A DNA stretch of 64,000 nt from Selaginella moellendorffii. Lineage: Eukaryota; Plantae; Lycopodiophyta. The notes under the pieces were generated by a model that saw nothing but the letters and a program-made list of their open reading frames with translations, was not told where the DNA came from and did not search any database. The DNA lies in assembly GCF_000143415.4 (NCBI RefSeq), contig NW_003314422.1, positions 63,956-127,955 on the forward strand. Reading direction: 5' to 3'. Within the stretch, counting starts at the first letter, position 1. Every line of letters begins with the position of its first letter. The position numbers and the translations under genes were made by a program. Below, piece by piece: positions 24,235 through 56,420 of the stretch.

Positions 24235-24583
24235 CTTTTGGGTTATAAAAACATCCTTGCTTTAGCCTTTGTTTTTAAAATCCTACTTCCCTGATCGATC
24301 GAGCAGATGTCAATTCGTGGCGTGGCATGGAATTTTTATTCGCACCCGCGAATCCAGCATCCCTCGGGGAACCAAAACCGTAAAAAAAAAGAGAACAATC
24401 CACACCCGGAAAAATCTTCCCGTTTGAGAGGGATCAAACTCAAGTGCCGGCACGCAAGGATTTCAAACGAAAACCGTGATGATGTTATCGTACAATGGAA
24501 AGAAACATAACCAAACGAATCTAATGCTAATCTCTCAAGGAGATCATCAAGAGGGAAAAAAAAGAAGAAATGAGCCAAAGAGC

Positions 24584-25562
24584 TTACATGATAGAGCAAC
24601 TGTTTGCATTGTCGTCGCTAAACATGTAGTCCATGTCGCTGCGAACTTGGGGTGTCACGCGATGGATGTACGGAGCCATATGAGCGGTGTTTTGCTGCGA
24701 CCTCTTGTCGACCTGGATGGTGTACGGCTTGGTCGTGGCGACGTGATGATCCGCGATGATCAGGGCCGGCTTGCTGTTGTTGCTGTTGCCGCCGCTCATG
24801 TGGCTGATTCCGGACGAATCTTTGGATCCCACAAGCTCCACGCTCTTGCCCGTCTTGGAGACCTTCTTGAGCACCTTCTTGGGGTCGATGTAGCCCGTCA
24901 CGGACACCTTCTTTTGCTTTTGGTCAACGGAGATGGAGTCAACACCTGTTTGAACGGTTTTGAATCAGTCCGGGCTGGATCACGATAAAAGATCTTTGAA
25001 CATATACCGTCAATGTCTGCAATGGCCTTCTTCACCTTTCGTATGCAAGCATCACAGTGGATCTGAACCTTGAGAACAATGGTCTGCGAGAAAAGTATAA
25101 AATCACAAAGGAGCAACGGAAAGATGAGGAAGCTGCTGTCTAGCAAGAGCAGAGACTTCCATTCTGTACCTGATACTTGTTCATTTTGTAGGCTGGCTCC
25201 ACCTTGCCGCCCTTGTGCTTCCCATGGAGGGAGTATAAGTTGTTGGTGTTGCGATAATAGTCCGAAGATTTGGGAGTGGAGTAGTAGACAGACTTGCCGT
25301 TGTTTGCAGCAGCAGCAGCAGCAACAGCGACGGCGGCCGGGGAGTAGTAATTCTTGCCGGATTTACCATGGCGGCTGTGGTTTTGGGCGTGGCCGGGCTG
25401 ATGGGACGAGTAGTAACTCCCCTTGTTGTTACCAGTGGAGTAGTAATCCGGTGACTGGAGGCTGGATGAATCATACTCTTCCAGTTCTTCGTCGCTGTAA
25501 CTTACGTCTGAGAAGTAACTCTTCGGCGACCCCTTGCTCTTCTTCCCTGAAGACTTGTACAT
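24584..25562 (-). CDS. HIPP paralogue; exons 25562-25170, 25083-25008, 24945-24584
   Basis: HMA motif VQIHCDACIRKVKKAI, C-terminal FSDDNANSCSIM. GT-AG introns keep frame. Confidence 0.9.
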
Positions 25563-28500
25563 TTCCTTTCTCTCTCTCTCTTTCCCTTGTTTTGCTTCTG
25601 ATCCTGATCTAACTAGAGCTTTCTATCGAGGAGACGAGAAGAATGTAGAGCTTAAACTACAAGAGGCGTAAGAAACACTCGAGACTGGAAGTCTTTATAT
25701 ATCCTCGATTGATTTGGCGCTGCTGAACAGAGAGTGAGTCTAGAGAAAGAGAAAGAGTGCACAGACAACATGAGCTCTACGCATTCTCAGGCGGTCAGGG
25801 GACAGGCGGTCTAGCTAGCATTAGAAGGACCTGGGAACTACACTTAAATGCAAAACATCCATGCTTTGTACTTAAGTCTCCTGGTTTAAGTAGTCGGTCA
25901 GGTGTTGGCCTAGATTTTCACCAGTCTTCCAGATTTCAAAATCTATCTTTTCTTGAAAAGAAATCTTACCTAGTATGGATTGAGACGTGTGTCCATGGTC
26001 GGCATGCTCACACTGTCTTGGAAGAAGGGTCCAACGAGAGGAAGCCAACACATTAGAGAATCATACTTCTAAAGAAGGGTATTATGGTGTTATTCCACCT
26101 GTAATTAATTCTCGATTTTACGAATTTAAGTTAAACTAGCATAAATATTACTTTATTTCAAACAATTTTGAATTTAACTATTGTGTGATTATGTAAATGA
26201 TAATGGATATACTTGGAATATTCTTGGGTATTCTAGTATATTCTTATGTTTATTATATACATATTTAAAACTTATAAAAGTTCTTAAGCTCTAGCATATT
26301 TTACAATCTAATGGTTTTGATATTAATCTTCTGTTTATAAATTATAAATATTCTTATAATTTCTTGTAGTGTTTTAAATTTCAATGGATAAAAATATATT
26401 TTTTTTTGCATTGAGGCTTCCTTATGGGCAATTGCAAATTTGAAGTTGAGGGATCATGTTAGGGTCTAGTGGAGCTCAGTATTAAACTTTTCTATGCTGG
26501 ATGTTGAAAGATGTAAATGCAATGTCTATAAGAATTCTTAATTAAAAATTCACATCTTCTTATGCTCACAGGAATAATCTCTAAATTGAAATCTAAGTAT
26601 GTGCTTTAAAACCATTCAACATTTCCTTTGGATTCTCACATCAACTTTCTCTATTTCTTGCCTGGTGAGCAATCTCTATTACAATTTGGACACGTTCAAG
26701 CAATGTGGTTATAAGAACAACTAAATCTATATATCTAGCAAGGTGAAAAAAGTATTCAATCCTTGTTTGTAGAAATTTAATGATTTCTTTTACAAATCCA
26801 TTATTTTTTCCTAAATTACTGATCAATTTGTAAATTTAAGTATAAAATATTTTAGATCTTGATAATAGAAGAATTTATATAACTGGTATAAAAATACTAG
26901 CATATTGAATAAATTTTAATAACAATTTATCATTTATGTCATAATACGTAATATCATACTCCCTTATCTAAATCTACTTTTCATATCTAGCATCTAGGTG
27001 TCATATATTCTTTTTCTAGAATATTACTTAGGATTATGCTTTTGATCTAATGGTTGAAATTTAAAAATTCAAAACATGTCAAACACTTCAATTTGACACT
27101 CTAATCAAGTTAGGTTAATACCACTGTTTATTTTGTACTTTTTAGCTTGCCAAGAATTGGGTGTGCAATAACAACTAAATCAATCAAGTAGACAAGATCA
27201 AAATCTTCAAATTCCACACATAGGTGTTACCTACCTACAAGTAAGTATAGACACCTTTACTTTCTTTATTTCCAAAGACAATTGCTATTGTAATTGTAAT
27301 GGAGCTAGTGTGCTTGGTGATTGATTGTCCTCAGATGGATGGATTGGATGGATATGAGAATTGGTAGTAAAAGCATGAGGAGTTATACCATATGCTATAA
27401 ATGCCACTATCAACTAAATTTGATTGTTCAACTACAATTTCATAGCATTGAGCAATCACACTAATTGCTGCTCTAGAGTCAAAAAAGGAAGAGGCTATTG
27501 CTCTATCATAAAGATGAATAAAAAGAAAAAAAAAAGCAAAAAAAAATAAATTGAAAAAGCTATAAGAAAAGCTCAATTTAAATAAAATCCTAAATCCAAG
27601 CACTCCTCAAGGACAATCAAAATTGCCCCTTCCACCAATGTGAGTGCATAGAAGATAGATTGGAATATAGAAATGTGCATATTAATTAGCCCAAAAACCT
27701 TAGTTTATATACAAAAGCAAATGGTCCAAATTGAAATCAATTCACTACATTAATATTAGTATATGGCATCATAACTGTACACTTTGACCATAAAACACAA
27801 ATTAAATACTTAAAATATTTTTTATTTGTGAATGACAATGTTTATTTATTTATCCATCAACTTTTCTCTATTTTGAGCTTGTATTAAAGTCATTGATTTT
27901 ATTCTCTATAGCCAAGTCAAGATGCTCTAGATCCTCCTTCCAATTTAGCTAAACATGCAATTTGACCAATCCAAGGACAAAGTCAGTCAATCAAAATTTT
28001 CAAATTCCATAGCACACCCATAGGTATTACATACCTATAAGTATTGGCTTTTAGTAAAGACACCTTTACTTTCTTTATTTCCAAAGATAATTCTATTTGT
28101 CGCGAATGTGACTTCGGTTATCAAAAGTTACTTATCGGTCAGTCCTTACGGACTCTCTTTCTTTACTGCTACGACGGCAGAAGGTCAGTATTGCTGGACC
28201 TGTTATCAATCTTCGTCTAAGCTAGTTGAGAAACTGGTCTTCATGTGTGCACTTGACCAAATGAGCATAAGGAAGGAATTCCTAAGTGTGTATTTAGTTA
28301 AACATACTTGACCTGGTTAGAGAAACTCATTCGTTGACTTGCACTTGCTAGTGTTGGGAACCCCCGCGATATTGAACTTGGTCCCTCAATATTTGCTAAA
28401 TGATAGCTTACCATGTCTGCCAAACACCCTCGCTATCATGCCCTTAGCATTAGTCTCAATTCGGTCCCAAATGTTATTTATGAAAAGTGTCTAGATTTGC

Positions 28501-31500: not shown

Positions 31501-32054
31501 CTTCGCTCGATGATGATGTAGTAGTGATAAGTTTGCTTTACTGGATGGTGTTGCGGAGGATCGTATTGTTAGACTTACATGGGTTTTCCATGTTGGCATA
31601 TTGACTCCACCTAAGCTCTATTTCGTTAAAGTGGGAATTGTCATTATCCCACTTGTAAAATAAGGTTTCCAAACCTTTATATAGTATATAAATATAACAA
31701 AATTCAACTGCATTGAGGCACATGCCATTTTATTTTAAACAAGGAAATGTCTACTCAATCACTTCTCCTCCCCCTGCCACTGCTTCACCTCTCTCTTCTC
31801 CTTGTCATTGTCGTCCAATTTCTTTCCATCCTTTTAATATTGGTTCAGTTGCTCCGAGTCTAGGTAGAGCCCAAGTCCCCATTCAATCTTTACTTTCCCC
31901 TTATTAATAAAACAACTTCGTAGACTTCCAATAACATGCTGTAACACTTCTAGTATAATGCAAATCCTCTCAAAGAATTGTCTTTTAATATTAATACAAT
32001 GGCATGGAACCCCATGCCATAATAAGTTACATTTTTAAATAAATACATGCCATC

Positions 32055-35000
32055 TCAGACTGTTATTTTTTGCCTCCAACGCCTATACAATAATCTTGGA
32101 ATTTCATCACTCTCCACACTATTAGGATTTAAACCCAATAGTAATGCCATCTCTTCTCTAATACGTCCACGCTCATGTTCAGTGGTCGAAGAACTCATCC
32201 GGTTGAGCAGATTATGGAGATGCGGATAGTGCTTGGCTAGACAATATACATGCCATAAATGATGACTGGTGTCTGTCCAATCAAATAGCTTTTGATATAC
32301 CATTCCATCTGCCATTTGGTTGATTTCTGCAGCCACCTCCTGGACTGGCCGGTTCTCTATCACCATCGCTCCAAGCCGTTTTGCAAGGTCCCCCAGAACA
32401 TACGGTTTCTTCTCCCTAGTTTCCATACTGCAAGAGATGGGGTGCACTGCATATGTGTGCGTGTTCGCTGCAGTTTTAATCGGCGAGTCATCGATGATGA
32501 GGATTTCACTTGACCTAGCAGTCCGGTTCATCACTACAGCCTCTGGCTTGACGAAGATGGGCTTGCTACCCCTCACATGGACCATAGTCAAGCAATCCTC
32601 CTGCGTTAGGAGAAAGTCAAATGGTAATATTACTCGCGTCTGATCGTGCATCATCTGTAGCAACGTTAATGCATTGTGGCGCATCATGGATGTCCAAACT
32701 CCCAATTGCAAATTGAACCTGGCCCTCTGTTTTAAGTGTCGCATGGTCATTATTAGATCCCGCAGTTTCTCCCGTGTGATTAATGTGAATCTGTCTCTTT
32801 TGACCAACTTGCGACTGCAGGCTTTGGAGGGTGCAGTGACATTCGAGGACGAGCCACGCTCATGGGAGAAAAGGACACCGTTCAGATCAAAAATGATACA
32901 GTACCTTCGCCGTGACTCTGAAATGAAATGCGTCAGCATAAAAAATGGTACAAGTCAATTTTACCATCTACAATATTAGCGAATGGTGCTCCCGATGGTC
33001 GTTGAGAGGGTTTTGGTCGAGGAAACGTGAAGGGCGGAAATACTCTCCTCTGCAATGTGGGGTCAATCGCATCCGATGGTGTGTGGGCACATGCCATTTC
33101 AGCTGTAGACTCTGGTACAACTGGCTCAACAGTGGCATGGGGTGGTTCTGATGGCGTGTGACCACACGCCATTTCAGCTGGTGCCTCCGTTGGCAAAGTG
33201 GACATGACCGAACAGGCAGCAGGGGCGGTGTAGGGAGGTTCCAACGGCGCGTAGTCAGACGATTGGGCACATGTTGAGTCCGTTGGAAATGAGGATACGA
33301 CCGGCTCGGCGGCTAGGGCAGCCTTATGCGGGTCCAATGGCGCCTGGTCACCGTCAGTTGGATACGTGGACAAGATTGACTCAGTGGTATGGGCAGCATC
33401 AAGTGGAGCGTGGTCAGCTTGCTTAGCGTTGATATGGATAGTAGCCTCCACCAGCTCTGATGACTCTTGCAGGCAAGTAGAGTCCACTGGCGGATCCATA
33501 TGCATGTCCAAATATCTCCCTTCGATTGAGATGGTATCCTCCCTACTGGCTACTAAAAACAAACTCATTAGCACATTGAATCGACTATACTGTATTTACC
33601 ATCAACTGCTATTGAGGAACTAGGACCGATATCACTTGGGCGCACTGCTGATTCTGAAGGATTGGACATACGTTTCGACCCTTTCTTGGCACTATCCTTC
33701 CTCGACACTAAAGGCTAGAGTTTGTATCTTAATTCAACTGAATAATCTTTACTTACCATTTGCTTTGCAACCTACATGGACAATGGTAAAAGGTTAGGAA
33801 TGGATGTACTATTATTTACCTGATGGTTTGTCTTGTATGACCTTCCTCCGCTGCTCTTTGGCCACCTCAGGCTGGCCATCGTCGTCATCATCGTCGTCGT
33901 CGTTATTGTGATTGTCACCATTGTGAGGACCATCCAAGTCCTCTTCGTCCTCCTCTTCTTCGTCCTCCTCTTCTTTGTCCTCCTCTTCGTCCTTCTGCTC
34001 TTCCTGCTCATTATCTTTCTCTGGCTCCTCATCCCCCTCCTGCATTTCTTCCATAGGCTGCTCAGGCTGGATGGCTTGTTCTTCTAGGACCATCTTGGGA
34101 AAATCATCTGGCCGAGTCTCCATCTCAAAATACAAGACATCCATAGCCTGTTTTAGTGCGTGACCTAGGACCGTATCCTCACCCGATTGTCTTAACATGG
34201 TTTCTGCACGTTCTTGCACCCTTCGAAGATGACGAGATGAGAAAAACGTGGCCCTGACTTGAAAAGCATCCCTCATCCATTGTACCTCTCCATTGAGATT
34301 GGGGAAGGGGAGTCTGCCATAGGAATCTGAGTCAGGAGGTGGTGACCGCGAGGCATTACCTATCATCTTTTCGTTGCCCTTCTTCCTTTTCGAATCAAAC
34401 GCCTCTTATCCCGACGATTGTCCAACGTGCTTTCGCTTTTTATGACCACTGTCAGTTTGAGCTTGGCTGGTGCTTGCCTGTTTTGCCTTTGAAGAAGTGT
34501 CTCCTGCAAGGAATGGCATGAGACCACACGCCATTGCAAATATAATTTGTACCTCCTTTTTTCCTATTGCTTGTCTGTTTGTCCTTCTTTGACGCGCCAC
34601 CAGTGCGCTTTTCAGTCCTCGTGTCTGAATATTCACAACGATCTATAATCAAAATGGCGTGAGGCCTCACGTGACCTTACCTTGTGCAGGTTGTGAGCTC
34701 GGCCCAACATGGGTATCTTCAACAGTAGCTGTTAACGCCGTTTCAGCATCTGGGGGTGGCCACGCTCCTGCATACAGAGCTTGTGAGATAACATTTAAAC
34801 TTAAAGTGCGTACTCACCAGGTTCGCAGAGAAGATACTGTTTTTCTTTGGCAACTGTAATTATATGCTCCATTGAAGTCACCTCTTCAATGGAGTTTGTC
34901 ACCGCAACACACGGGACACCCTTGAGTAGTGCGGCTCGAAAGAATAGTCCGCCGCAGTTGTACTCGACAACGCATTTGCCCTTGGAGTCGGAAGCAGGTG

Positions 35001-37374
35001 ACCCACCCGCTATTGCGTTGAAGACCCAGCTGAGCATTTCCCATGCTGCACTTGGAGCTTTCTCTGGATTCGAAAGCTCCATAGCCGTCTTCAGTTCCTC
35101 AGGCACGGGTAAATTGACCTCCCTCAGATCAATTCGATCGGCCTTGTCGAACGAAGCTGGGAAGTCACTCTAGTCCCACTCTGCTGCAGGACCAATAACA
35201 AGGGCGAGTGTGAAGATGCGGACATTCGTCGGTATCTTCTTCTTAGCCATTATCCCATGGATCTCCTGCATCTCCTTGCCTTTCAACCGAGCCTTCACCT
35301 CGTTCAAGGCCTTCCAGAACTTGTGATAGGATTCGGAGTCGTAGATCATATAGTGGACTGAAGATTCCACCTCCGCAAGTCCCACCATTAAGTCAATGAT
35401 GGAGCTGACTTCGTCTGCATGAGTGATCTCCTCGTTTGTGAAGTCCATCACACAAAAGATGTTCTTGACCTGCTCATCTCCACGGGAAACGATGCTCCTC
35501 CACCTTTGATCCTCATCCGAATTCACGTATACCCGGTAAGGTTCTCGATAGGCCTCTGCTGCGGGGTCGAGCTGTTTCTGAAGCCGGCGGTCGACATCCC
35601 TTTTAATGAAATTTGGATACTGATCCAACTTCTCAGCTTTATTTTTCGTGGCATCCCGCAGCAGATCGATGAACTTGGGGCCCCCCTTCACGTACTCGTC
35701 GATGTCTTCATTTGACAACTCCAGCTCTTCCATCATCTCTTGCGTGGTGTCAATGCTCACCCTCTCCACGGCCACTTGCTCGAAGATCCAATCCTTTAAT
35801 AGCGCACGAGCTCTCAGAGTCGTGCACAAGTCCTCGTATGTCACAATATGGCCGGGAGTCATTTTGGTCTTGTTGAAGACTACCTCACCACGTAGAAGAG
35901 CATTAGCCACTGTCAGAAGGTCGTCGTCGTCTAGAGACCGTGAGAAACGCAAGGTGTTGAGCTTCAAATCATTGGGCTTCCGGCCGTCCTCCACACCCAT
36001 TGAGTTTAGCAACTCCCCGTCATGGTACCTCCTCAGCACATCTACCCATTTGTCAAAAACAACTTTTGTCGCGAGTAGAATGTTATGGATGCTGAGTGTG
36101 TCATTGACCCCCAGTGTTTTCGAGAGAAGACTCGAGAATTCCTGCAATGGAAATGGCGTGAGGCCACATGCTATGCCACATGCAATGAGGCTTACCTGCC
36201 AGGCGCTAGTTGCTAGTGCACGTCCTTGTCCTGGTTTTTGTGGCTTCTTCAGTTGAACCCAGAGCTTCTGTGTTCGTGCCAATGTCTCGTGCAGACCTGA
36301 TTTGTAGCACGTTTCTTGCTTGACATTCTGCGCGTGGGAGATGGATATGATAGATCGGAGGGGCGAGTTGCCTTTTATCAGGCGGACAACTCTTGTCTTG
36401 AAGACTTTCTTCACCTCCTCGCCCACCATAATATCCACAACTATCTCTTGCATCGCCAAACTAGAATGCTGCCCGGAGACGGCATAGAACCGGATGTTCT
36501 GATCGTCCAACACCTTCCTATTGATGAAGTCTGGAAACCTCGTTTCGCCCTTCATTGTTCGGTAGTAGGGGATCACGTCTGCGATGTCGGGTGTTACTGG
36601 ACTTGCCAGCATCTTCTGCTTCAGTTTCTCCACCCACTCATCAGATACTAGCCTGTGGTTGTATTTGCTTTGGATGTCGATATGGCTCACGTCGATTGTA
36701 TATACTTTGTTGGAATAGTAACAAGTACTATTATCTGCGACGATTTTTGCTGCCTCTTCTTGCTCTTTCTGCTCTTTGCGGCTCTTCTTTTTGGTGGGTG
36801 TAGTGTTCGAACCCGAGGCAATGGCATCACCGAGTAGCTTCTTTTTTGGAGCAAGAGAGTCGGACGTCGGCTTGAGCTTGACCACCCTTTTCTGCTTCGG
36901 GGTAGTTTCCAGATCGACCCCCTTCCCCTTCGCTTCACGAACTGGAGGCACTCTCAACGGCTCAATGTTGGAATATAGTTTTTGAACATCGCCGTAGGTG
37001 AGGTCCGTGGATTCCATGTGATCTTCATAGACCCGCAGCGTCTTTGAAATTGTGGGCCTCCTGGACAACCTCTCCCTAGCTCCCTCTAGGAATTCCTCAT
37101 AGCCGCTGCCCCCTTCCGGGAAGCCGCTAGGATATGCAAGGTGGATCTTGAAGGCGGATGCTGTCTCTACCACAAGTGCCAGTCCATATTCTTGCATGGA
37201 ACTGCATGGAGTGTTTGTCACTTGGATGAGGATCCCCATGCATTCTTTTCTCCCACCATCTGTGTTGTACAGCCTCAGATCCTCGCCTTCCATCCCGAAA
37301 GTCCAACTGGTGAGCTCCTCCCCCTTCTCTGCATCCACATTGACAGTGGCTGGAAGAAGAACGCAATTCCTCGC
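32055..37374 (-). pseudogene. Transposon cargo gene, at least 9 exons, ~1640 codons: ParB/Srx-like domain, degenerate MTase-like region, acidic/repeat linker, FCP1/NIF HAD phosphatase; two premature stops
   Basis: Exons 37374-36196, 36141-34818, 34767-34681, 34624-34553, 34503-33820, 33771-33757, 33707-33600, 33552-32965, 32917-32055. All introns are GT-AG, 47-56 nt and frame-preserving. In-frame stops TAG (35172-35170) and TAA (34408-34406). True start uncertain. Confidence 0.7.
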
Positions 37375-39909
37375 CTGTTCAGAAATGCACAACAATTAGA
37401 GCTGACAGATGAAAAGCTAGCAGCTGGAAATAACGTAAGGCCACACGCCATTCACCACTGCATCAGATGTCTTGAGGCTGCATCCTAAGATGGCGTGAGG
37501 CTACACGCCATTTGTAACCGGACTGCACTCGAGAGCCCAATCGGTGCATGCCAATGTTGCTACTGAATGGCATGTGGCCTCATGCCATTTTCTACTTGGC
37601 CTAAAAGACTTACCATTTGAAGCCGAATGGAGGCCGTGACAATCGAGGCCGGACTCGCTGGCGAATGTGCACTGTGTGTGCAACAGATCGTAGCAGCAAG
37701 GCTACTCTGCCACTTACAGTTGGAGAGTGGTGTTGAAATCTCCCGGGACGCCAAGTGGGCTGCGTGTGGGTGGCGGAGTGGGCGGCGGAGTTGGCGGCGA
37801 AGTTACAAACTGGGTGTGTTTTGAAGTGGACACCGATGCACATGAGCACGATGCGAGCGCGAGTGTGATGCAAGCGCGAGTGGACGCCGATGCACACGAG
37901 AAACCTGTAGAGAAGGTAGATGAGCGCGAATGTGAGTGTGATTGCGAGTGGGAGCGCGATGCGAGTGCGAGTACGATGCAAAATGCAAAACCTAACCTCA
38001 CACGCGCGAAATGTCACGACGGTTGGTAATCCCGCCACGTCATCATTCCTCGGACTTGGGTGCCACCATTAATTTCTGGATCGCCGCGCGCATGCATGCA
38101 CGTGAAATCCAAAAGAAATCCGCAACGTCATCATTCCTCGGACTGCATGCACGCGAAATCCAAAAGAAAGATCATGATTGGGATATCATTTAATACCCTC
38201 GCTATATTTATACCATGCATGATTGGATATTCCAAAGCATCTTGTATTTCCACGCGAGATTTTTTTGAGTTTTCTGGAGATCCAACCGTTAGATCGCAAC
38301 TAGATTTTACAGAATGGTATACAATGTCTTTCTTGATGACCCTGCAAAGAAGCATCTCGATCAGACACCACATGAGACCACACAAGCCTTACAATGTTTC
38401 AGGGGCATTTGCCATAGATCCGACCGTTATTTTGCTCCAAGATTTTACAGTTTGGTGTGAATTGACCTTTCCATCGACACTGCAAAGGGACATCACAATC
38501 AGATGTGGGATCACAAGAAACTAACTTCACTAACTCTGGTTTCACCAAGATCTACATAAGGAGTTATGAAATGAAAGGACCCTCTCTATTGAAATGTGTT
38601 TATGGTCCTAGGGGCATTGTGACATATCAAAGGATTTTGCATCAAGTTCTGTATTTGCATGTTTATCAAGCTACTGAATTGCTAAATCCTAAACCCTAAA
38701 CATGTGGCAAATGCTGCGTGAAGAAAGATGCCCTTTCTAGGCAAATGCTGTAAGAGGCAGATGCCGAGCAGATGTATCTCAGGCTAGCGAAGGGGACAAA
38801 CGAAAGTTAGCTATAAACATGACGGGATGCAAATAGATTACTAGGCTGGTCCTGCGAAAATCAAAAACCATAATTGAAAACATTGAAAATGCAAAAAGAA
38901 AGGTTTATAATATTTTTGAATTTTAAGCAACCAAAGGAATGTAAGTAGGGCATGTGTTTGTAAGTTTAAAAATGCCTCAACCACTTAAATTCCCAAGTAA
39001 ATAAAGCTGTTTCTATTTTTGGTACAGGTAAACTTTATAGCGTGTGGGCTCATGCAATTTTGAACCCAAAAATGCACCAAAAAATGCTCGACTAGCATTA
39101 TTCTTTGAATGGCGTGTGGCCTTATATTGCCATAAATGGACGTACACACACAGCATAATTATTCCTTTACACGGCGAATAATCTTGGTGCGGATCGCTGA
39201 CATGGCATGGCAAAGTTCGAATCACTGACATGGCACAGCTGGATCGAGGCAAGGACATGATGTGACAAAGTTCAACCTCCGACAGTAAAGTCTAGAAGCT
39301 ACTCAGTTTGAAATTTGTCAAAGGAATCATAAGATCTGGTTTGTCAGAGGATTTGATGTGACGTTCAAGCGTGTGTTATTTTTGAATTCTCGAACTCATT
39401 CCTAGGTCTATCATTTTTGTGCGCCGCGTTCTTGGTTCCGCTGAGCGCAGTGAGCGCTGCTTGTGTAAGCGGCGTTGTGAGCTGTGGTTTATGCGTCTAT
39501 GAGCGGTTGAGGCATTGCGAGCGCCATTGCGAGTGGCAGTTTGTGCGAGCGGCGCTACGAGCAGTTGCGGTGTTGCGAGCGGCACTACAAGTAGTTGCGG
39601 TGTTGCGAGCGGCACTGTCTTTGGTGTGGCTACCGCTTCCTCTTGATATTCGGCACTTGTGCTTCCTGGTATGTTCACCATGGAATGGCTTAGGACCACA
39701 TTTAGAAATGGCATGAGGCCACATGCCATCTTGGGCCCTTGCAATTTCATGGCTAACGTATTGTCATGTATGTTTTTACTTGCCTGCAGCTGTGTGTATA
39801 TCAAGATGGCATGAGGCCTCATGCTATTGAGGTTGTTTGGTATGTTATGATTTAGGCCATTCTCCAATCATTTTTTGTATGGTCTTAACTTCTTTTCTAC
39901 ACTTTCAGA

Positions 39910-42808
39910 ATGGCCTCCGCAAGTGCGACGCATGTTCCTTCCGTGGATCTTAAGAACCGTGCTACATGGATTCAGGCAAAGGTGTTTCTAAACAACCCCG
40001 AGGGGGAGGTGGTAGCTGAGGGTTTAGCCACAGTTGTCGATCCAAGAGATGCGGTTGCTAATCAAGAATTGGGCTGGGATGATATTGGAGTTGCGATTTT
40101 AGAGGTTGTTGACACAGAAGAAAACAGTCTGACTATTGGAAGCATTGTGCGGTGGAAATTGAGGCACTTAGTGTTTGAGAATGTGAAGGATTCACAATCA
40201 AACACCACTACAACTGATGACAGAACATCTCTTCATGGGAAAAGAAAGTACACCTTCCTAAAGCGCAGCCAAAGGGATCTGAGCAACGAACCGAAAAGGC
40301 AGAAAATGGCGATGGAGGTTCGAATGGTCTCGACAGTTGCTTGTTGCAAGAGGAGGTGCTGTCAACATGTTGATTGGGATGCTATTGAAGAGGAGAGAGC
40401 AAGATACAAGACATTGTAGTGGAAGGTAGCTCGCAATTTTGTGTATGAGGCATTACGGTCATCTGTTGATGCTTCAGAACATCAGGTGGGGGGCATGGTC
40501 TTCCAGAGGGGTTTGGTCTGCATGAAGGCATGGAGAATCATTTATGGAGTCCCTCGAACCACATTCTACAGAATCAAAACTGAGTTCGAGGAACAAAGGG
40601 TTCAACAGGCAGTCCATGGGAACGACGGTACTCACAAAACTAGGGGTTATGTTGTATATGGAGAGGCAATCTTCAAGAGGTTTGTCGAGACATGTAGCGA
40701 GCAACAACCACATAAAACCCGCCTCTTGGAAGATGGAACTCGAGACACCCAACGAGTTCTCCCTTCCATGTATACCAAGGGGGCCATATTGGAAGATGTG
40801 AATCGGGAACTCCAGAGTAATGGCTACAGGAAGCTGAGCCAATCTTGATTTAGTAGATTGTGGAGCAACAGGTTCAGGGATGTGAGTATAGGAAAGTACT
40901 CCAGCTTTTCAAAGTGTGACGAGTGCACTGCTATCAAAATGGCTTTGTCGAAGAATTCTTGCATCGCTCAAGAGCGAGAGACGTTGGTTAGAAGGCGGCT
41001 CGACCACAACATCGAGCAGAGAAGCTGCAGGACTGCATATTATCATAACAGGATTCTCTCCATGGAGAGACCTGACTCTTACCTCTGCATCATCCACGAC
41101 AAAATGGACCAGAAAAAGACGTGCTTACCTCGACTCAATCCTGCCCCCAAGGCAATCTCTTCATCCATGCAGCTGCCTGTGTCTCTGTTTGGCATAATCG
41201 CTCATGGGCATGGTGCCCAGAACTATGGGAACTTCTTTGTACCTCTATGGCGTGGCGGCGGTGCAAACATGATGATTGCGTCCCTAGCAAAACACTTAAG
41301 GTCTCTGCAAAGTGTGCAGACTGAGCTGAACGGCCAACCCTTGCATAAGGCCCTTGTCGATCGAACCCCATACAGGGTTCAGCTGGAGGAGGAGCAAAGG
41401 CTTGCAGTATCGAGTGTGGCCCCATGCCATCCCAGTGAATATGTTGGCCCTCAGATTGTAGGGTTATCACGTGAGGCCTCATGCCATTCCGACGAGGCTG
41501 GTCGCCCGGTGAATGCACAGCCTCATCCAAATGAAGCAGAATCTCAAGGAAGTTCTTGCGGCCGATGTGGCCTTCCACCCCATCTTCTGCTCCAAACAGA
41601 CAATGCTGGCAGTGAGAACAAAAACACGTACGTCTTTGCGTACTTGGCGATGCTTGTTGCCAAAGGCATATTTGAAACGGTTACACTTGGCTTTCTCATG
41701 GTTGGGCACACTCATGAAGACGTCGATGCCATGTTCAGTCACCTGGCAGAGTCCCTCCGACGATCCAATGTCCTCACCCGCCCACAACTTTACGATGAAT
41801 TCCAAAATTGCATCAAAGGCACTGTTGAAGCTGCACTTGTGACAGAGGTTCCAGACTTTAAGGGGTTTGTAAGAGGCTACATCAGGGACGGATCCGAAAC
41901 GCTGATTGGCCACTCCAAGCCTCTTCAGTTTCATTTCAGCATGCGTGACGGTGCTCAAGTGATGAGGTACAAGATGAGAGAATGGGACACAGTGTGGCTG
42001 CTAGTGGACGGCATTGAACTCTTCAAGAGAGATCCCATAACTGGGGAACCTATGATTCCTCAGGGTCCCCCACGGCCGATGCACCCGGATGGACTCAAAG
42101 ACCAAGAAAGTATAGTGGCCGAGATTAGACAGCATATTGCCTTCTGGAAGAGGGGGTTGGTGTTTGGTGGAGAATCCTATTTTCAGAGGTGCAAGACTTT
42201 GATCGAATACTGGGAGAAGATTATATCTGCTATCCAAAATGGGCCGGTTGTATATGAAGATTTGGAAGAGTCCTTTTGGCCAGAACCCAGAGCACTAGAT
42301 AGTAGCGGAACAATGTCCTCTGGAAATGCAGTGACAGATAACGATGTTGAGGATCACTATTGTGGGCCGAGGAACAAGAAGCCGGATTCAGCATTCAATC
42401 CAGTATAGGTCTGCAAAGGAATGGTCGTACTTGTCAGACCCAGTAATAAAAAACAAATGATATGGGTGGGGCGCTGCATCACTGATGCAGAGGAGGACGC
42501 GGAAACTAACTCCTTCAATGTAACTGTGGAGTGGTTCAAGCCAAGTTCCGGATATACGAAGGATTGCCTAGAAAAGAGATGGGTGCTGAATCCAAGGGAT
42601 CCCAATATGAGCATATCGGTGGATAATGTTGTGCATGGTTGGATGCGGAAGCAGAGTGCCACCATCACCTTGCCAGACCATGCAAGAGATGCAGCAAGAG
42701 CATTCATAACCCAGGTTCAAGGTGAGATTCATTAATATTCCTTTACTAAGTTTCTAATGTATTTTATTTCAAGGTGAACAATCCGAATCTGAATCAGAGG
42801 AGGCGTGA
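39910..42808 (+). pseudogene. Sola-related DDD transposase (GHTHEDxD family), one reading frame broken by three in-frame stops
   Basis: ORFs 39910, 40441, 40858 and 42421 share one frame (stops at 40417, 40846, 42406). Motifs FSKCDEC, IIHDKMDQ, LQTDNAGSENKN, FLMVGHTHEDVDAMFS. Probable last intron 42722-42773. Confidence 0.8.
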
Positions 42809-43015
42809 TGGCATGTGGCCTGAGATGATGTGACATATGCATTTACCAATCACATGTGCATAAATCTAATAATATGGCGTGTGGCCCATATTAATGGCAC
42901 ATAAACCCATATTGTGGGCTTACGTGCTTTATGTACCATCATTCCCTTGCAGCGTGTGTGTTGGTTTCCTTTTATAACACAACGAACTCCATATTTTAGG
43001 GTGAAGAGCGTTTTC

Positions 43016-43273
43016 ATGGCAAGCACAAAATCTATAAGTGAGGCAGAAAAGGAGACGGAGAAGGAGATAGGTGAAGATGTAGAATATATAAGTCTTCCAA
43101 ACTCTCCGTACTATACTCCAGGTGATCATTTTTCTGAACAAACGGCAATATTAACAACTATCGAGAACGCCCCAGTAATGTCAGAGACAACAATCCAAAG
43201 CAAAACAACTGACCCGGAGAAGGATGATAGTACTGCTGAGAGTACCAAAAAGGAGGTGTCCACTAGCGCTTAG
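43016..43273 (+). CDS. Possible short acidic ORF inside the TIR element
   Basis: MASTKSISEAEKETEKE... preceded by an AG acceptor-like site; no homology recognised. Confidence 0.25.
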   Translation: MASTKSISEAEKETEKEIGEDVEYISLPNSPYYTPGDHFSEQTAILTTIENAPVMSETTIQSKTTDPEKDDSTAESTKKEVSTSA

Positions 43274-46200
43274 GCTTATAATGGCGTGTGCCCTCATGCC
43301 ATTTACTTGATCACCAAATACCTTTTTCCCTTTGCACTAGTATATCTTAATACCGGTCTGAGAAATAGAATAGCATGTGCCCTCAAGCCTTTTACTAAAT
43401 CACCTTTGACAGAAATGCAAGCCTCTATGTCGTAAAAAAAAGGTACTAGAGAAATTCCTTAATAATATGAATGTTATTTAGTTTCATGAAAATACACTAA
43501 GGGTCAAAGGAGTTAAATGACTTCTCCAGACTAGCAATGCCTCTTGCTACACCTTCACAATTAGATTCGTTAGAAAAAGATAACATTGAATAATATCTAA
43601 ATGTTCTCACCATTAAGTTATATGTCTGGCTAATAGGAATGACGTTCATCTTGGAAAGCTCACCACACACTCAATGAACAAACAAATAATGTGTGCGCAC
43701 ATGCCATCACTCTTCTTTAGCTTCAGATTCGGCTTGTTCACCTTGACAATGAGATTTATTATACAACCAGATGGACTCAGTCTGGACACAAAGTCATCGC
43801 GCTAGTCACCATGCCCCAGATATGTCTAGCCCCTGGACAAAAAACATATAATTTCACGTCATTTTCAAATACTTGAAAATTTGTACCTATTCCCATTTTA
43901 CTGAATAAATCCCACTTTAACGAAATAGAGCATACCTTTATCAATACCATTTAGTTATGTTTCGTTTATAGTATTGGATTTCTTTGAGTCTTGGATGTGG
44001 TGAATCAGTCCTTGATGAAGTGTTATTTGTAACTAAGTTTTGTTAAAGGATTGGTCTCGGATGCTGGGTAAAGTATCTTCAACCTTGGTTAGCTTAGTTG
44101 CTGGAAAGTTTTGAGTGATGATTCACTCTTGCCTTCTTGTAGCTTTATTCTGATGTTAATGGCATTGAAGTGATGCTTTGTCGTTGACATTATTGGTGTT
44201 GAGATTCAAGTGAGATGAGATGTCTCTCTGTAGGATTGATATTGAGTCTCATTAATCTCGATGCAATTAGTGTTGATGCTTGAGCTATAGTTTTATGTTA
44301 TTGGCATTTATGCATTTGCTAGTTAGCAACTGTATTGACGTTCAAACGAACTGAGTGGCAAGTTTGAGTTAGTTGTGTTCTAGACGAGATTATTTAGTAA
44401 GGGTTGAGCTTTGGCTTTTCCTTAAAAAGTGATTCAATCGTGGACTATACTAGCTTTACGAGAGGAAGAGTTAGTGATCGATATTAGAATGTTTGAATCC
44501 TTATTGGATTTGAGTTGGAATATATCGATTATGGATGATTCTTTTTGTGCTTGTTATGAAGTGAGTTACATCTTGCTAAAGATAGATTCATAGAGGATTG
44601 TTTAATAATCACTTGTTGAGCATAACTTCATTGTGTTTGGCTTTTGGATTGATGCAAATATGCTCTTCATTAGCTTTGGCATTATGAAGTTTAGATTATG
44701 AATGTGTTGAAGAGAATATTGTGGGTTATATCATGATTTCTTCTTTAGCATTGAAGTTAGTTCCTACAAGACTTGTGATCATTATTAGGCAAGACTTAGT
44801 TATATGCTTCTTTAAGCTTTTGGTTCTTTGAGTTTTGTGCTTATTGTTTCATTTGTTAAAAGATATTGGGGAAGACATTTTGGCTCATTCGCTTCAATGT
44901 TGAAGTTGGCTTTTGCATTTAGCAATTATTGGTGATGATTGACTATCATCTAGGATAATTGATTATCCTTGTTAGAGGTTTACTTGATTGTTGTTGATAT
45001 AGAATGACTCGTTGTTCTTTGGGATGGTGGATTCTTTCATTGATAATGATTATGCATCTCTTTCTTGATGGGATGATTGATGATCTTTTATGATAGTTTG
45101 CTGTTCTCTTTGATGGCTTATGGCTTTTCGCAATATCACATGTACTTTGTGGTTTGCTTTGGATTGGTCTCTTGGGTTTGAGACATTAGTAGGATGTTGC
45201 TGACACTTGCTTGAGCAACTCTGGTTCCTTAGTATTATTGACTGGGATCTATTCAGATTGGCTTCTATGATAGTTAGCATAAATGGGTGTTTGTTGGTCT
45301 TACTGCATTCATTTTGTTTTGTTGATTATTGCTCGAGTTAGTTTTGAAAGGTTGGGATGTTATTTCTTTTGGGTGATACATTCATGAGCAATGTGTTTGT
45401 CAGTCAATGATACTTTGTGTTCTTTGAGTTATCTTTAGTAAGTTGGTTGGAATACTGTCTGCCATCTTTAGTACTTAAGTTTTATCATTGAGTTTTTTTT
45501 ATGATATGCTAGCTATTGAATTTTGTTGGATGGTGAATTCTATATTTTCCAATGATAGTGATCTTGGTGGTTCCTATCCACTAATATTGGTTTATCGGAT
45601 GATAACTTACTTGGAATACTTTCGTATTCTAATGTAACATATATTTGCTGATAATTAAGTCTCTAAGATATCATTGTCTATGACTTTGATATTGTCCATC
45701 TATTGATCTTTAAGTTTAGGCCAGTATAGGCAGACTGACTTTGACACTTCATGTGCATGGTGAAATCTCTAATCATGGGGTAGCTACTATCAACTAGTCA
45801 CATAACCCGCCTCTTTGTCGATGTTCCTTATTCTGTTAAAAGGGCGTGACCGTGTAAACAACTCTAACTACCTGTTTACAGTAGTGTATCTAAAACTTAT
45901 CAACGGGTTTAGTTTCTTTGCTCATGAGGGTTGGGGCCTTTAGCTTCTCTCTCTATGCCACATGCGGGCAGGGGCGTATCACACTTTTGTAAGTTGGGTG
46001 ACACCCAGAGCAGCAAGGGTGGCTGACTCTATTGGTCATTTCCTTGTCGGCGACGGCTGGAAGGTGTCTGAGTTAGTAGCACATCTGCGTTAGACAAAAA
46101 GGTTACCTTAACTCATTTAAGTTGGTGCATTTCTCATATAGTGTGAATACTGTGAACTTTTTCTGGAGTTGTTTCCTTGGCAGTATTCTAGACTCGAGTG

Positions 46201-47242
46201 TGCATCGATGAGGATGTCGATCTTCCCTAGGGGGGGAGAGTGTCGCGAATGTGACTTCGAGTATCGAAAGTTATCTGTCGGCTAGTCCTTACAGACTCTC
46301 TTTCCTTACTGCCACGATGGCAAGAGGTCAGTATTGCTGGACCCATTATCAGTCTCCGCCTAAGCTAGTTGAGAAACTAGTCTTCATGTGTGCACTTGAC
46401 CAGATGAGCATAAGGAAGGAATTCCTAAGTGTGTATTTAGTCAAACATACTTGACTTGGTTAGAGAAACTCATTCGTTGACTTGCACTTGCTAGTGCTGG
46501 AAACCCCCACGATATTGAGTTTGGTCCCTCAATATTCGCTAAATGATAGCTTACCGTGTTTGCCAAACACCCTCGCTATCATGCCCTTAGCGTTAGTCTC
46601 AATTCGGTCCTAAATGCTATTTATGGAAAGTGTCTAGATTTGCTCATTTGGCATATAAATAGAATATAGAGATCAGCCTGAACACAATGGCGTTCATCCT
46701 GTGTCCAAATTCACAATCTGGCGCCATTCCATAATTCCATATTTAGTAAGCTTCGAACTTGTCCCAGAGACTAACTCCTGATACTAAGGGAGGCTTGGGG
46801 TGAAAGCCCAAAGCGTGTGTTCTTCAAGGGGGGGGGGGGGGGGGGGGGCGGGGGGTTGTGGGGGGTTCCAAATGTATAGTAGGGAGATAGTGGGTAGGTT
46901 GGGTATGGCCGACCAACATGAGGCATAGTTTAACTCCCGCTTGCGTGTTTATCCTTGTTCTGCGTTCGGCTTGGGTTTAAGCCCAAGTTCCATTCCATGC
47001 TAGCTGGTGGAGTACCCATATCCTCACGTTAGGCCACCGGTTTGCCGAAATAGCACTAGACTCTGTTTGGCTCCGTTTTGTGTGCTGGTCTTAGTATTGG
47101 GATGCTGGTTGCTCCAGGACTATTCCAAGTCGCTCTGGGCTCCTGTCCCTTTGCTCCTTGGGCTGTAGTTGCTCCATGGTCCGGTTCCATCACTCCTTGG
47201 CTCCATGCTTAGGAGTTTGGCACCATTCCTTCATTCAGTGGC

Positions 47243-50200
47243 CCAAGATGGACTCGAGATAGACCCGAGATGGAGTCCGAGATGGACCCGAGATGGAGTC
47301 CAAAATGGAGTCTGAGATTGACCCGAGATGGAGTCCAAGATGGACCCAAAATGGAGTTTGAGATGGACCCGAGATGGAGTCTGAGATGCGACTAAGATAG
47401 AGTCCGAGTCCGAATACTAATACAGGCTGTTGAGTGAAAGCCCAAAGCGATCATCCCCCAAGGGGGGGGGGGGGGGGGCAAGGCGGCTGTGGGGGGTTCA
47501 AAGTGTGGGGGTTGGATCCCAGTGGAGCCAATTTGGCCAAGAAAGGCCAGTTTTGCCCAGGAAGGCCATACCCAACTATTGGGTGATGGGATGACCACTG
47601 GGAAGTCCAAAGCTAGAGTGAATATAGACCGACAAGCAGGGTAGCTTGGTGAAGTGTTCAAGAGCCGGCTCTAGTTCCCCCAGGAGACCGAATGGTAGAT
47701 GCTCCCAGTCCAAGCGTACTACCTACTTGGATACCTGACATGGCTTAACGAAACCTCGCTCTAAGCCCATGGCTAAAGCACCCAAAGGCAAAAGGTAGGG
47801 AGAGTACCCACAAGGCTCGTGTAGGGCCACGGTGTTTCGAAATGTTGTCCTAAAGGCCTAGACTGTGCAAAGGAAGAGGAGCAGTTCTCTGGTGTAGTGA
47901 CCAAAGATACAATTGTGTGGTGAGGAAGTCCTAGAGGACTGTGGGACTTAGTGGTCGGGCTTGTGGGCCTTGATCCAGTGGCAGTGTTGGCGAACATGGC
48001 CATGGACAAAAAGGGACTTGATGGGGACTGGAAAAGAGATATTAGGGAAGGCTATTCCCCATGTCTACGGGCATTCTAAGGATGTTAAGGAGTGGATTTG
48101 GGGTGATCACTCATGGACGGATGGCCCAGTCTTTGAGAGACAGGACTGCGATGTAGGTGGTGTGGGACCACCGGTGAGACCAAGGTGAATGGGCATGACC
48201 TTAGTGTAATATGCTGATATGTCGGTGGTATCTTGGGGTGTCGGTCATGGGATCGGACACATGGAGCACTTGGACCAAGTGCAAAGGTTGAGTGCCATGG
48301 ATGTCATTCTCGGGGTTATCAATCCTCAAGTCTTGAATTGGACTTATGGAGGTTGTGAATGAGACTCCTTCAAGTGGTTAAAGATGTGGTTAAATGACTA
48401 AAGTAGAATGGAAAAATTAGTCACTTACAATTTGGTATCAGAGCTGTTCCTTAGTCTGACTTTTATTTGTGGCCAAGTATATCACCACTTGTATTGGAAT
48501 TGGAAGGTCCTGGGTATGGACCTATTTTTGAAGAGTAGCATGTCGAGAGGACATGGCTCTCCACTCAAGTTCATGCGTGAACTTATGGGCAATGTGGTGG
48601 ATAGAAAAGGGGCTAGTAAGGGAATGACTTTGGGATCTTGGGAATAATATAAAGGTTTCCTCAGAGAGTTAAGGATGTGATCTAGATAAGTGTTTGACTC
48701 AGCAAATTGGCTAATGTAGTTATGGTAAATAACTATAGTTGGGATCACGGGAAAGATAGAGACTCCAAAATAATAAAGGAGTCACAAGATTATCCTCATA
48801 TAATTGAGGTTGGTGTTCATGAATTTGAGACCAAAATTAATGATTGTAGGAGGTCAAATACGGAAGAGAACACAAGTCCTTGAAATGGCAGTCGGGGCTA
48901 CCTTTAATAAATGCTGGAACAACCCAAAGAATTCGGGGTGTACTTAGAGGATGAGTTGGTATTCTCATCATATGGATAAGTAGTCCTAAGGTGCAAAAGT
49001 TGCCCTCAGAGAACAAAATCAAGTGTTGGAGTAACACTTGCAAAGATAGTCCTTGTGAATAGGATATAAACGTAAGAAGTTGTATTCCAATGAGCTGGCA
49101 CCTCAAAAGTAGTACCTTACGGGTTAGTGGATTAACCAAGTCTAAAAATGCTAGATGACTCGAGTAAAGTCAAGGAATGGTCCTAAAAGATTAATAAAAG
49201 CATTTGGACTAAGGTGTGTTGTGCCCCACGAAGGTTGGGGAGGATCATAAGATTCAAGTATGAGAACAATGAGTATCTCATGGATGGTAAAATGTGCCAT
49301 ACTAAAGTTGTGGGGAAGGTGTTCCTAGAAGAAAACAACTTGGACACAAAGTTGTGTGTAAACTCTATGATGTAGTGCTAACGGATAGTTGGCATGAGAA
49401 AGAACTGTATTGGTTTTGGCAAAGACCTAGACACAAGTAAAAAGTGTTATAAAGGTAGGCTCATGGAGCCGATGGTGTGGAAACACCAAATGTGCCAAAG
49501 TGTGATGTCTTAAGGTAAGTTGGCAGGTTCATGAGAACCCCTTCCCAAAGGAATCCTAATAAAAATGGGAATGGTATAACCTAAGTTGGAAGGCATGCAA
49601 TTGGAGTGTGGTGACCCAGATAATGATGGAGGTGTGGAAGCACCAATAATGAGTTGTAAGATTTAACAATTATGAGGCAATTAAGCAAATGGTGCAAAAT
49701 AGTCAGTTAAAATGGTAGAAGGTAACTACCCAAAACTTCCCAATGGCATAAAGAAGTTTGATATACCCTTATGGGGGATAAATTGCTTATGTTGCAATAT
49801 AATAAGTCAATGTTGTAAATAGGAATGCTCATTGTTAAAGAGGCCATCATTAGGACACTCAAACACTCTAGAACACCAAGAGGTGGTGTTTGGTGTCGCA
49901 AGGGCAATAGATAAGGCACAAAGGACTAAATCCTTAGCGAATGATGGATAAAAGATGTTATCCAAAAGTCCAAAGTTGCGAAGATGGGAGAAGACCGTCT
50001 GCTTAAATTAGATAAAACCAAAAATGAAATTTTGGCAAGGCTAGTGATAGGCATATAAAGGCCTATAAGTAGCAATATTAATTCTGATGTGTGGGATTAT
50101 AAGGTGAGCATACCTGAATTGAGGAACCACTCCCTAGGCTATTGAGTAAGTTCATCCCTAAGAATACTTATTAAGGCATGGTAGAAAGTGCAAAGCTATC
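47243..50200 (+). mobile_element. 5'-truncated LTR (family B, ends 48429), PBS and decayed internal region, interrupted by the chromovirus
   Basis: Homologous to the reverse complement of 14290-15680. Ends CTTACA at 48429; PBS TGGTATCAGAGC at 48433-48444. Confidence 0.8.
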
Positions 50201-51418
50201 TGTAAGGAACCAACTCGCCGAGGTGTCGTAGGCTAAAGGAACCCCGAAAGCATGACCAAAATGACAAAGAGTTCATCGGATGGGACCAAGTCGAAGATCG
50301 AGTCCAAGACCGACTCTAGGACCGAGTTCGAGATAGAGTCCGGAATCGAGTCCGAGACCGACTCGGGGACCGAGTTCGAGTCCGAGTTCGAGACCGAGTT
50401 CGAGACGGAGTCCGAGATCCGAAATCGGGTCCGAGGTCGAGTCCGAGGTCGAGTCCGAGGTCGGGTCCGAGATCGGGTCCGAGATCGAGTCCGTGATCGA
50501 GTCCGAACCCGAATCCGAAGTCGGATCCGAAATCGGGTCCAAGATCGAGCCAGAGACTAAGTCCAAATACTAATACGGGTCAAGGGGTGAAAGCCCAAAG
50601 CGTGCGTCTCCCAGGGGGGGGGGGGGGGGGGGCCTTCCGGGGGTTCCCAAAGTCACTCGGGGGTTAGGTAGGGCCTCCGGCCCGGTTTTGAAGGGACTCT
50701 CCAGTTGGGCTTCCAAACCGACTTGAGGTTGAGACTGGGACCGAGGGGCCTTGGGTGGGAGTGAGCATGGACTTGGCTGGTGCCGGAGGGGCCATCCAAG
50801 GAAGTGCTCAAGAACAGCTCCCACTCCCAAAAGGGAAACCGATTGCGGTGCTCCCGGCTCATGTGGAGTGGTGCCCCACTTGAGTACCATGCGGCTCATT
50901 GGTCCTCGCCCTTCCTAGGGGCTTGGGCCTTCCTTCGGGATGGAAGTGGGGGGCGAGAGGTACCCATACCGGGCCGCTAGGCCACGGTGTTTCGCCCCGG
51001 CGTCCCGAAGCAAGTGTTGCACTCAAGACTTGGGATTTAGAGGGTCCCATGATCAAGTCTTGTGGTACCAAAGGATGTTAGGAACCTGGAAGCTTGGTGT
51101 GCTTGGCTGCTTGTGCTTGCGGGGAGTGTAGCCGAACCTTAAGTCCAGTCTAACCCGGGGAGGGGGATTGGGAGTGATTTGGGAATCCGTGGATGGAAGG
51201 CTAACACTCCGTTGCTCGTGCAGTGAGTAGCTGAGACCAAGTAGGAGCTGGTACCATAGGCGAGAACCTTGGCAAGGGAACTTAGCAAAAGCCAAGGCGG
51301 TGTTGGACGGATAGACGAGGTAAGCTGGCAAATTGGAAAGGAAAAATTTGTGGTTTACAATTTCGTATCAGAGCCTTTATCTCAGTTCTAGCGAAGGATA
51401 GAGGCGGATTGCTAGGAG

Positions 51419-56191: not shown

Positions 56192-56281
56192 AAGTATCAA
56201 TTTGAGAAGTTGAGCAATGGCATATGTTGGGACCCGAAGGCGCGCCGAAGGTAAGCTAATTAGCATGGGTTAGCTAGATCG

Positions 56282-56420
56282 ACCAGGCGTAGGGAGCTAC
56301 GCCCGACTCCCTGCGGGGATGTCGAATCCGTAGACGTATTCTACGGAGGTTGGGTTCGAGTCCCAACCCCCTAGTAAAGCAAGGCTGGGTTCAAGTCCCG
56401 ACCCTATACTAGGGCGTGGT
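56282..56420 (+). other. Multi-hairpin, tRNA-like structured element in the chromovirus 3' UTR
   Basis: Consecutive stems at 56286-56303, 56304-56324, 56327-56347, 56348-56368, 56383-56403; two TTCRAGT T-loop-like loops. Confidence 0.6.

Follow-up and report, generated by a model that had tools for sequence, protein, structure and literature searches.

Dispersed 22-bp palindromes as predicted sites of a ParB-like accessory protein in a DNA transposon of Selaginella moellendorffii

Introduction

In Arabidopsis, the accessory protein VANC21 of the transposon VANDAL21 binds to motifs located in introns and spacers and causes loss of methylation (PMC5735166). According to one source, no transposon system other than VANDAL/VANC is known to bind its own sequence and modify it (10.1101/2025.02.11.637652). 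The Ectocarpus transposon Sola1-1_Ec32 carries an opposite-strand gene that combines ParB and methyltransferase domains and has been suggested to act on its own transposon, by binding as well as by modification (PMC12477816). A red-algal protein, PAG3 of a Plavaka element (Bostrychia), has a ParB-like N-terminus, and nearby inverted repeats are proposed as its binding sites (10.1101/2025.02.11.637652). In bacteria, VirB is a ParB-type anti-silencer (PMC10770331). Here we describe a DNA transposon of the lycophyte Selaginella moellendorffii that contains about 20 copies of a 22-bp palindrome and, on the strand opposite to its transposase, a cargo (accessory) gene whose product has a predicted ParB-like fold. 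The element lies within a window of 64,000 nucleotides (NCBI RefSeq assembly GCF_000143415.4, contig NW_003314422.1, positions 63,956 to 127,955 of the forward strand), by which we mean the whole stretch analysed; all positions below are counted from its first letter.

An earlier reading of the window from its letters alone (the sequence-only reading) had listed 21 palindrome sites, which served as our working set. Whatever its job, the accessory protein seems likely to read these palindromes. With moderate confidence we further propose that the palindromes are the predicted sites through which this protein protects the element from silencing, in a VANC-like manner. A literature search, with most subscription journals and Repbase outside its coverage, turned up no report from land plants of an element of this kind or of sites scattered in this way.

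Results

Within the window, the palindrome is confined to the element

The window was scanned with the palindrome consensus ATGGCRTGWGGCCWCAYGCCAT at 0 to 5 mismatches. Two perfect copies were found, and the number rose to 8, 10, 14, 16 and 18 when up to 1, 2, 3, 4 and 5 mismatches were allowed. All 18 copies lie within 31613-43933, and none was found in the other 51.7 kb of the window, host genes and other transposons included, which bears out the claim of the sequence-only reading that some 20 copies are confined to the element. In Markov simulations of the element (200 runs each), 0.07 (order 1) or 0.12 (order 3) copies were expected at 5 mismatches, with a maximum of 1 and 2 copies, respectively. 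The consensus was derived from these same copies, which makes the enrichment test post hoc; despite this, eight copies with no more than one mismatch over 22 bases rule out chance. At six mismatches, 4 of 24 matches fall outside the element, which is the noise level.

Each of the 21 listed positions has a match within 5 bases. When a matrix was built from the 21 sites, 20 of them (scores 15.3-35.1) outscored the best site outside the element (11.9), and the site at 42874 was borderline with 11.8. Two sites had been graded wrongly: 39109, listed as near-full, is a half-site with 6 mismatches, and the copy listed as partial at 41410 is a near-full one at 41409 with 3. The sequence that had been proposed, ATGGCRTG(W)GGCC(W)CAYGCCAT, holds apart from its optional W positions. 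Both are always present, and every full copy is exactly 22 bp long.

Six of the 21 sites are located in predicted introns, four between the two genes, seven in the arms and four in coding sequence. Non-coding copies thus make up 17 of the 21, whereas 62.5% of the element is coding (P 6e-5, on the predicted gene model). The four coding copies all fall in low-complexity stretches; the peptides MACGHTP, MACAHTP and EASCH, noticed before, were confirmed, and 41409 is a fourth coding copy. Three copies sit, as had been stated, in cargo introns of about 50 nt (36195-36142, 34680-34625 and 34552-34504), and frame and homologue tests support these predicted introns. The sites are dispersed and not subterminal, again in agreement with the sequence-only reading: 16 of the 21 are over 1 kb away from both ends, five are within 1 kb of an end, and the 24-bp inverted ends contain no copy.

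Flanking duplications were examined at all 21 sites. None is present at 13 of them and one of 4 bp was seen, as compared to 62% without any and about 4% with at least 4 bp in a random control; the copies therefore lack target-site duplications of their own. The flanks of the copies share 26% identity on average (maximum 70%), and only the pair 33076/33151 looks duplicated. On these grounds, micro-MITE (miniature inverted-repeat transposable element) units were rejected. The W positions pair in 7/21 copies and the R/Y positions in 9/21. Folding of the three motif introns compared to shuffles gave z values of -2.5, 0.3 and -0.2, and several short predicted introns carry no motif. The pairing and folding data fit a motif that is read as double-stranded DNA, not as a hairpin, and an RNA hairpin role was rejected as poorly supported. 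Deletion joints at 37585/39828 and 39806/39824 end at palindrome copies, which suggests that the palindromes also act as recombination points making shortened derivatives.

Methylation-sensitive binding, which had been suggested as well, is not supported. CG is missing from 8/21 copies, both perfect ones included, for which reason methylation-blocked binding was rejected, and CHG is found in 2/21. The region 37400-39950 (2,551 bp) contains seven copies and 35 listed differences from the family; only one of these differences affects a copy, which it returns to the consensus. The mix of CATG and CGTG, fixed in the family majority for the seven copies checked, thus belongs to the family. Tolerance of C-to-T changes at the sites suggests indifference of the reader to methylation. 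Among the listed rows, 45 C-to-T type differences were examined. CG accounts for 24 of them and CHG for 11, with a background of 16% each, and the window's copy of the element was probably methylated.

The accessory protein has predicted ParB-type domains

When GT-AG introns are spliced out, a single predicted frame results that runs from 37616 to 32055, has about 1,640 codons and contains two stops; at 34407, the middle base of the second stop (34408), the family majority differs. The introns are predictions, and the splice paths at the 3' and 5' parts of the gene are not unique: an ATG-started frame is open across the first intron (37613-37375), as are other splice paths. Retention of the introns 34817-34768, 34680-34625 and 34552-34504 breaks the frame. 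For the in-frame intron 36195-36142, splicing improves the score against 5/5 homologues (by 10-23), and it is at this position that several unspliced homologue calls start or stop.

A search of 1.8 billion proteins with the cargo sequence yielded 13 phmmer matches at E <=0.001, of which P0003 and P0007, both repeat proteins, were dropped as spurious and 11, with their cluster members, were kept. Named relatives come from Selaginella, Calypogeia and Adiantum. Three runs of word-indexed protein searches returned none, none and 2 matches. In the homologues P0002/P0015/P0016/P0017 of S. moellendorffii, the ParB N-terminal fold is mostly missing; they are annotated on two scaffolds only and are possibly a domesticated single-copy derivative.

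Sequence searches of Pfam, PHROGs and PDB with the cargo gave no ParB or methyltransferase match. In structure comparisons, ParB, Noc and KorB fill the top 10 Foldseek rows (best E 0.0024), and the top 14 rows of VIA are all ParB-family (ParB, Noc, KorB or PadC). The predicted nucleotide-binding fold is followed by a helical domain that resembles the DNA-binding domain of these proteins and is split by a motif-bearing intron (Table 1). Alignments to ParB, Noc and KorB reach model residue 324, with an uncertain orientation of the domains (rmsd 5-11), and KorB is among the best structural matches (Z 9.3). The parS-like interpretation of the sites is thus supported on the side of the protein, whereas its methylation-sensitive part is not. 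Of the pocket residues, R, GxH and N are conserved across 9 distinct protein clusters, and the pocket is thus probably still in use.

The next domain resembles permuted N4C/N6A methyltransferases (1g60, 8urk, 1boo and 2zie, Z 7.7-8.2), although an unrelated NADPH-binding Rossmann domain ties at 8.0 and the predicted local distance difference test score (pLDDT) is mostly 30-60 there. The motif [DNSH]PP[YFW] defines permuted N4C/N6A DNA methyltransferases (PMC4738411). It is absent in 14/14 rows, with DFTN here and DLRR, DSAN, DSTN, DATT or DAAH in 13/13 homologue rows, and an active methyltransferase was rejected because the catalytic motif is lost. The phosphatase fusion at the end of the gene is also present in the fern protein P0014/P0029. 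A host NIF phosphatase gene at 5476-6144 (-), E 3.5e-49, belongs to the same family as this last domain, and the captured domain may derive from a gene such as this. Language-model features of cargo residues 215-560 (35716-36753) match Ascomycota DUF3723 clusters at 0.95-0.97, which is the sole basis for the link to DUF3723; DUF3723 may be a ParB-type module too.

The element as a member of a family

The left boundary at 31613 is where the contigs of run X4 begin; they exit the window after 43931, and a loose end of this run carries the matching base for 43932 in another copy. They cover 30/30 bins of the element stretch (2.5 million letters in total), and 60,093 X1 contigs lie on it; contig depth in these runs is not equal to copy number, but from coverage and contig number we infer a many-copy family. 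Contigs of related flanking repeats run on from 31612 in register with 43938 (11/17 identities, while 13 other offsets gave no more than 7), and the target-site duplication is thereby fixed at 4 bp. The DNA flanking the element looks like a decayed LINE (long interspersed nuclear element), as judged from a motif and a joint translation. Direct repeats at 28098-28397 and 46241-46540 (90% identical) surround the LINE-like DNA and the element, giving a three-level nest.

In a profile scan of the element's frames, no MULE (Mutator-like element) family was matched and the transposase family found was DUF7869, which we take to be linked to Sola1. Sola1 elements prefer AWWT/AWDT targets (PMC3845634). 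The duplication ACCT, from a single insertion only, does not fit this preference; the Ectocarpus family has a different bias. The exact palindrome pattern had 0 matches in viral and 0 in metagenome contigs, and a scan for related loci gave 66 pattern matches and no relative, in collections that are poor in plant DNA.

Family contigs have additional sequence at 39806/39824 (between two copies), 39916 and 42820. The window's copy has accordingly lost segments, with palindromes marking the end of two of them, and additional palindrome sites may exist in the family. Comparison with family contigs also indicates that the copy at 42808 was apparently cut by a deletion. The divergent intergenic region contains GC-rich microrepeats and a short duplicated word (37850-38000, 38036-38143 and 39480-39620) and varies in length among family contigs, with one joint that returns 838 bases (39090 to 38253).

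Table 1. Features of the transposon, its two genes and its palindrome copies (predicted where stated)
Feature	Position	Strand	Details
DNA transposon, 12,321 bp, inferred many-copy family, decayed copy	31613..43933		Inverted ends; run X4 contigs
Left target-site duplication, ACCT	31609..31612	+	Sequence and empty-site register
Right target-site duplication, ACCT	43934..43937	+	Sequence and empty-site register
Left terminal inverted repeat, 24 bp	31613..31636	+	
Right terminal inverted repeat, 24 bp	43910..43933	-	One mismatch at 43932 in the window's copy
Transposase frame, in-frame stops 40417, 40846, 42406	39907..42732	+	Frame scan
DUF7869 (PF25273) match, E 4.4e-43	~41572-41982	+	Within transposase frame
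Cargo (accessory) gene, predicted ~1,640 aa, ~ten exons, in-frame stops 35172, 34408	32055..37616	-	Exon paths
ParB-like N-terminal (nucleotide-binding) fold, predicted	36310..36711	-	7bm8_A Z 10.9, rmsd 2.2, 98 aligned; 6ryk_B Z 10.0, rmsd 2.9, 99 aligned
Helical domain, ParB/Noc/KorB DNA-binding-like	35809..36303	-	6t1f_B Z 9.2, rmsd 5.1, 156 aligned, model 26-324
Methyltransferase-like domain (permuted N4C/N6A type), catalytic motif missing	34846..35547	-	1g60_B Z 8.2, 8urk 7.8, 1boo 7.8
NIF/HAD phosphatase-like domain, end of cargo gene	32457..32903	-	PF03031 E 6.4e-6, above cut-off
Palindrome half-site copy	31707..31728		6 mismatches; left non-coding end
Palindrome copy	31999..32020		4 mismatches; behind cargo stop codon
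Two coding copies, 33076 (2 mismatches) and 33151 (1)	33076..33172		Duplicated low-complexity linker; read as MACAHTP, MACGHTP
Palindrome copy	34513..34534		1 mismatch; predicted 49-nt intron 34552-34504
Palindrome copy	34654..34675		3 mismatches; predicted 56-nt intron 34680-34625
Palindrome copy	36153..36174		1 mismatch; predicted 54-nt in-frame intron 36195-36142
Copies 37430 (3 mismatches), 37490 (1), 37567 (0)	37430..37588		Predicted 239-nt first intron 37613-37375
Copies 39037 (3 mismatches), 39109 (6), 39708 (0), 39806 (1)	39037..39827		Between the two genes
Coding copies 41409 (3 mismatches), 41466 (2)	41409..41487		Low-complexity part of transposase frame, just before DUF7869 match
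Copies 42808 (5 mismatches), 42874 (7), 43281 (1), 43370 (4), 43686 (5)	42808..43707		Right arm

Other features of the window

An intronless NB-ARC and LRR gene of 1,078 aa is located at 2086-5322 (+). The hAT element at 15273-18347 has an open transposase frame of 713 aa (15925-18063) and arrays of 11-12-bp repeats at both ends; arrays similar to these were found at 47233-47413 and 50275-50573. Two small genes with similar frames lie tail to tail at 23300-25620 and presumably encode heavy-metal-associated domain proteins. The LTR (long terminal repeat) retrotransposon at 50682-56978 has 300-base repeats that are 99% identical and a long gag-pol-like frame, and contains the window's 100 N. At 63017-63880, seven overlapping matches are spaced by 96 bp, and the units match as inverted repeats too.

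Discussion

If the palindromes serve protection from silencing, the ParB-type DNA-binding module of the accessory protein would land on them, coat the 12-kb element and keep host silencing off. A dimer would read the two half-sites, and sites would be expected to build up where the code tolerates them, that is, in introns, spacers and loose linkers. The freedom of C or T at the CG position would allow methylated or deaminated copies to be read alike. The degenerate methyltransferase and the phosphatase might serve as reader or recruiter instead of as a writer on DNA. Sliding gated by CTP, in the style of ParB and VirB, is possible but is not assumed because the key arginine of GxxR is absent.

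Several observations weigh against this proposal. The structure model was made from 28 sequences and has a middling mean pLDDT of 61 (only 33 without the alignment), and no Foldseek row falls under E 0.001. The box II motif GxxR of canonical ParB (PMC12704722) reads GQHS here, and GQHS, GQHT or GLHS in 14/14 rows from 9 clusters, so that the arginine is missing throughout. In ParB-fold proteins, an R-to-A change in GxxR abolishes nucleotide binding (PMC12704722). With its motif lost, the methyltransferase offers no evident chemistry for anti-silencing. Finally, the decay at methylatable sites means that protection, if any, failed or lapsed in the window's copy.

The same protein might bind the palindromes for a mechanical or regulatory job instead, either compacting the 12-kb element to bring its ends together for transposition or controlling the two divergent genes as KorB would. 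We consider this possible, though unlikely. It shares the evidence of sites and fold with the anti-silencing proposal, and the match to KorB, the 7/21 copies around the divergent promoter region and the degeneration of the methyltransferase speak in its favour. However, the sites run throughout both genes and both arms and not just through promoters or ends, and published relatives have chromatin- or DNA-modifying domains.

That the palindromes are internal binding sites of the transposase, with the ParB-like gene as a bystander, is unlikely. The motif does not occur in the inverted ends, and a symmetric 22-mer suits the ParB-like domain encoded by the same element. Confinement to the element would suit any reader that the element encodes, and according to a 2026 preprint (10.64898/2026.08.24.746577) a transposase can reportedly activate its own copies. 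The five copies near an end would also be in line with a transposase, but they are set against 16 that lie farther inside.

Very unlikely, in our view, is an origin as host transcription factor sites that the element has gathered to drive its own expression. The half-site contains words that we take to be E-box-like and RY-like, and the copies in predicted introns (six) and in the divergent intergenic region (four) could be read in this sense. Against this, a fixed two-fold spacing of 22 bp in about 20 copies exceeds the usual length of host sites, no copy is near host genes or other transposons in the 51.7 kb, and four copies are retained in coding sequence. The idea that the copies are micro-MITEs independent of one another, or that they act in splicing as RNA hairpins, is largely refuted and barely credible, because flanking duplications at chance level, dissimilar flanks, incomplete pairing, two introns that fold no better than shuffles and several motif-free introns outweigh the one intron that folds better (z -2.5) and the two deletions that end at palindromes.

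A bolder version of the anti-silencing proposal would be a true ParB/parS-like system in a plant nucleus. A nucleotide-gated dimer with an altered GQHS pocket would load at the roughly 20 palindromes, spread over the 12 kb and shield the element from silencing, and the module, including DUF3723 of Starships, would be a general device for self-recognition swapped among unrelated eukaryotic transposons. We regard this version as tentative and probably wrong in its full form. If it were true, a bacterial segregation module would have been reused for self-recognition in plant chromatin, and this could give DUF3723 of Starships a function.

Among bacterial systems, ParB/parS, Noc, KorB and VirB resemble the Selaginella element in the predicted N-terminal fold with a helical DNA-binding domain and in having several palindromes on the same DNA (PMC12704722, PMC10770331), and VirB uses the same design for anti-silencing (PMC10770331). 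In contrast to bacterial ParB, the protein described here lacks the GxxR arginine, ends in methyltransferase-like and phosphatase domains and is encoded by an intron-containing eukaryotic gene. No ATPase family was found among the nine element frames scanned, and a ParA-binding motif is absent from the translation by eye. A canonical ParABS system was rejected, given the altered GxxR and the failure to find a ParA partner or its binding motif. The conserved DUF3723 genes of fungal Starships are, like the cargo, accessory genes of eukaryotic transposons; the cargo has no Pfam match to PF12520, and the function of DUF3723 is listed as unknown (PMC9156397), so that the similarity in language-model features is a lead only.

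VANDAL21 with VANC21 is similar in that an accessory gene on a plant DNA transposon is accompanied by an element-specific motif enriched in introns, intergenic and terminal non-coding DNA (PMC5735166). VANDAL21 is Mutator-like, however, its 9-bp motif is non-palindromic and was multiplied by tandem repeats, and VANC is not reported as ParB-like. In the Selaginella element, the motif is palindromic, 22 bp long and set in mostly unrelated flanks, and the transposase is of the DUF7869 type. PAG3 shares with the Selaginella protein the ParB-like N-terminus of a transposon accessory protein and the presence of inverted repeats as candidate sites; it differs in its EnSpm/Plavaka transposase and 2OG-oxygenase effector, and its repeats form tandem arrays beside the gene, whereas those described here are single copies across introns and exons (10.1101/2025.02.11.637652).

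Sola1-1_Ec32 is likewise a large DNA transposon with a 4-bp target duplication and ends starting with AA, and has an opposite-strand accessory gene that joins ParB-like and N4C/N6A methyltransferase(-like) domains, which are predicted ones in the Selaginella element (PMC12477816). It comes from a brown alga and is 21.5 kb long with 282-bp ends, compared to 12,321 bp and 24-bp ends here. The main text reports no palindromes for it, and the supplement has a single mention that concerns another family, whereas about 20 dispersed sites are present in the Selaginella element. In addition, the element described here has lost the catalytic motif and carries a fused HAD phosphatase. The likeness is one of published description, and algal ParB-methyltransferase proteins were not among the named matches of the cargo search.

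Judged from sequence, the accessory protein is not a canonical ParB and, by motif, not an active methyltransferase, and the element is not a VANDAL. The design is already known from algae, and the element would function in the manner of the algal accessory systems and of VANC. Algal ParB-like accessory genes have been proposed for the same self-binding role; in Selaginella, a long and sharply defined candidate site occurs about 20 times, with its predicted reader in the same element. What is new is a land-plant element, inferred to have many copies, with a defined, testable pair of protein and site.

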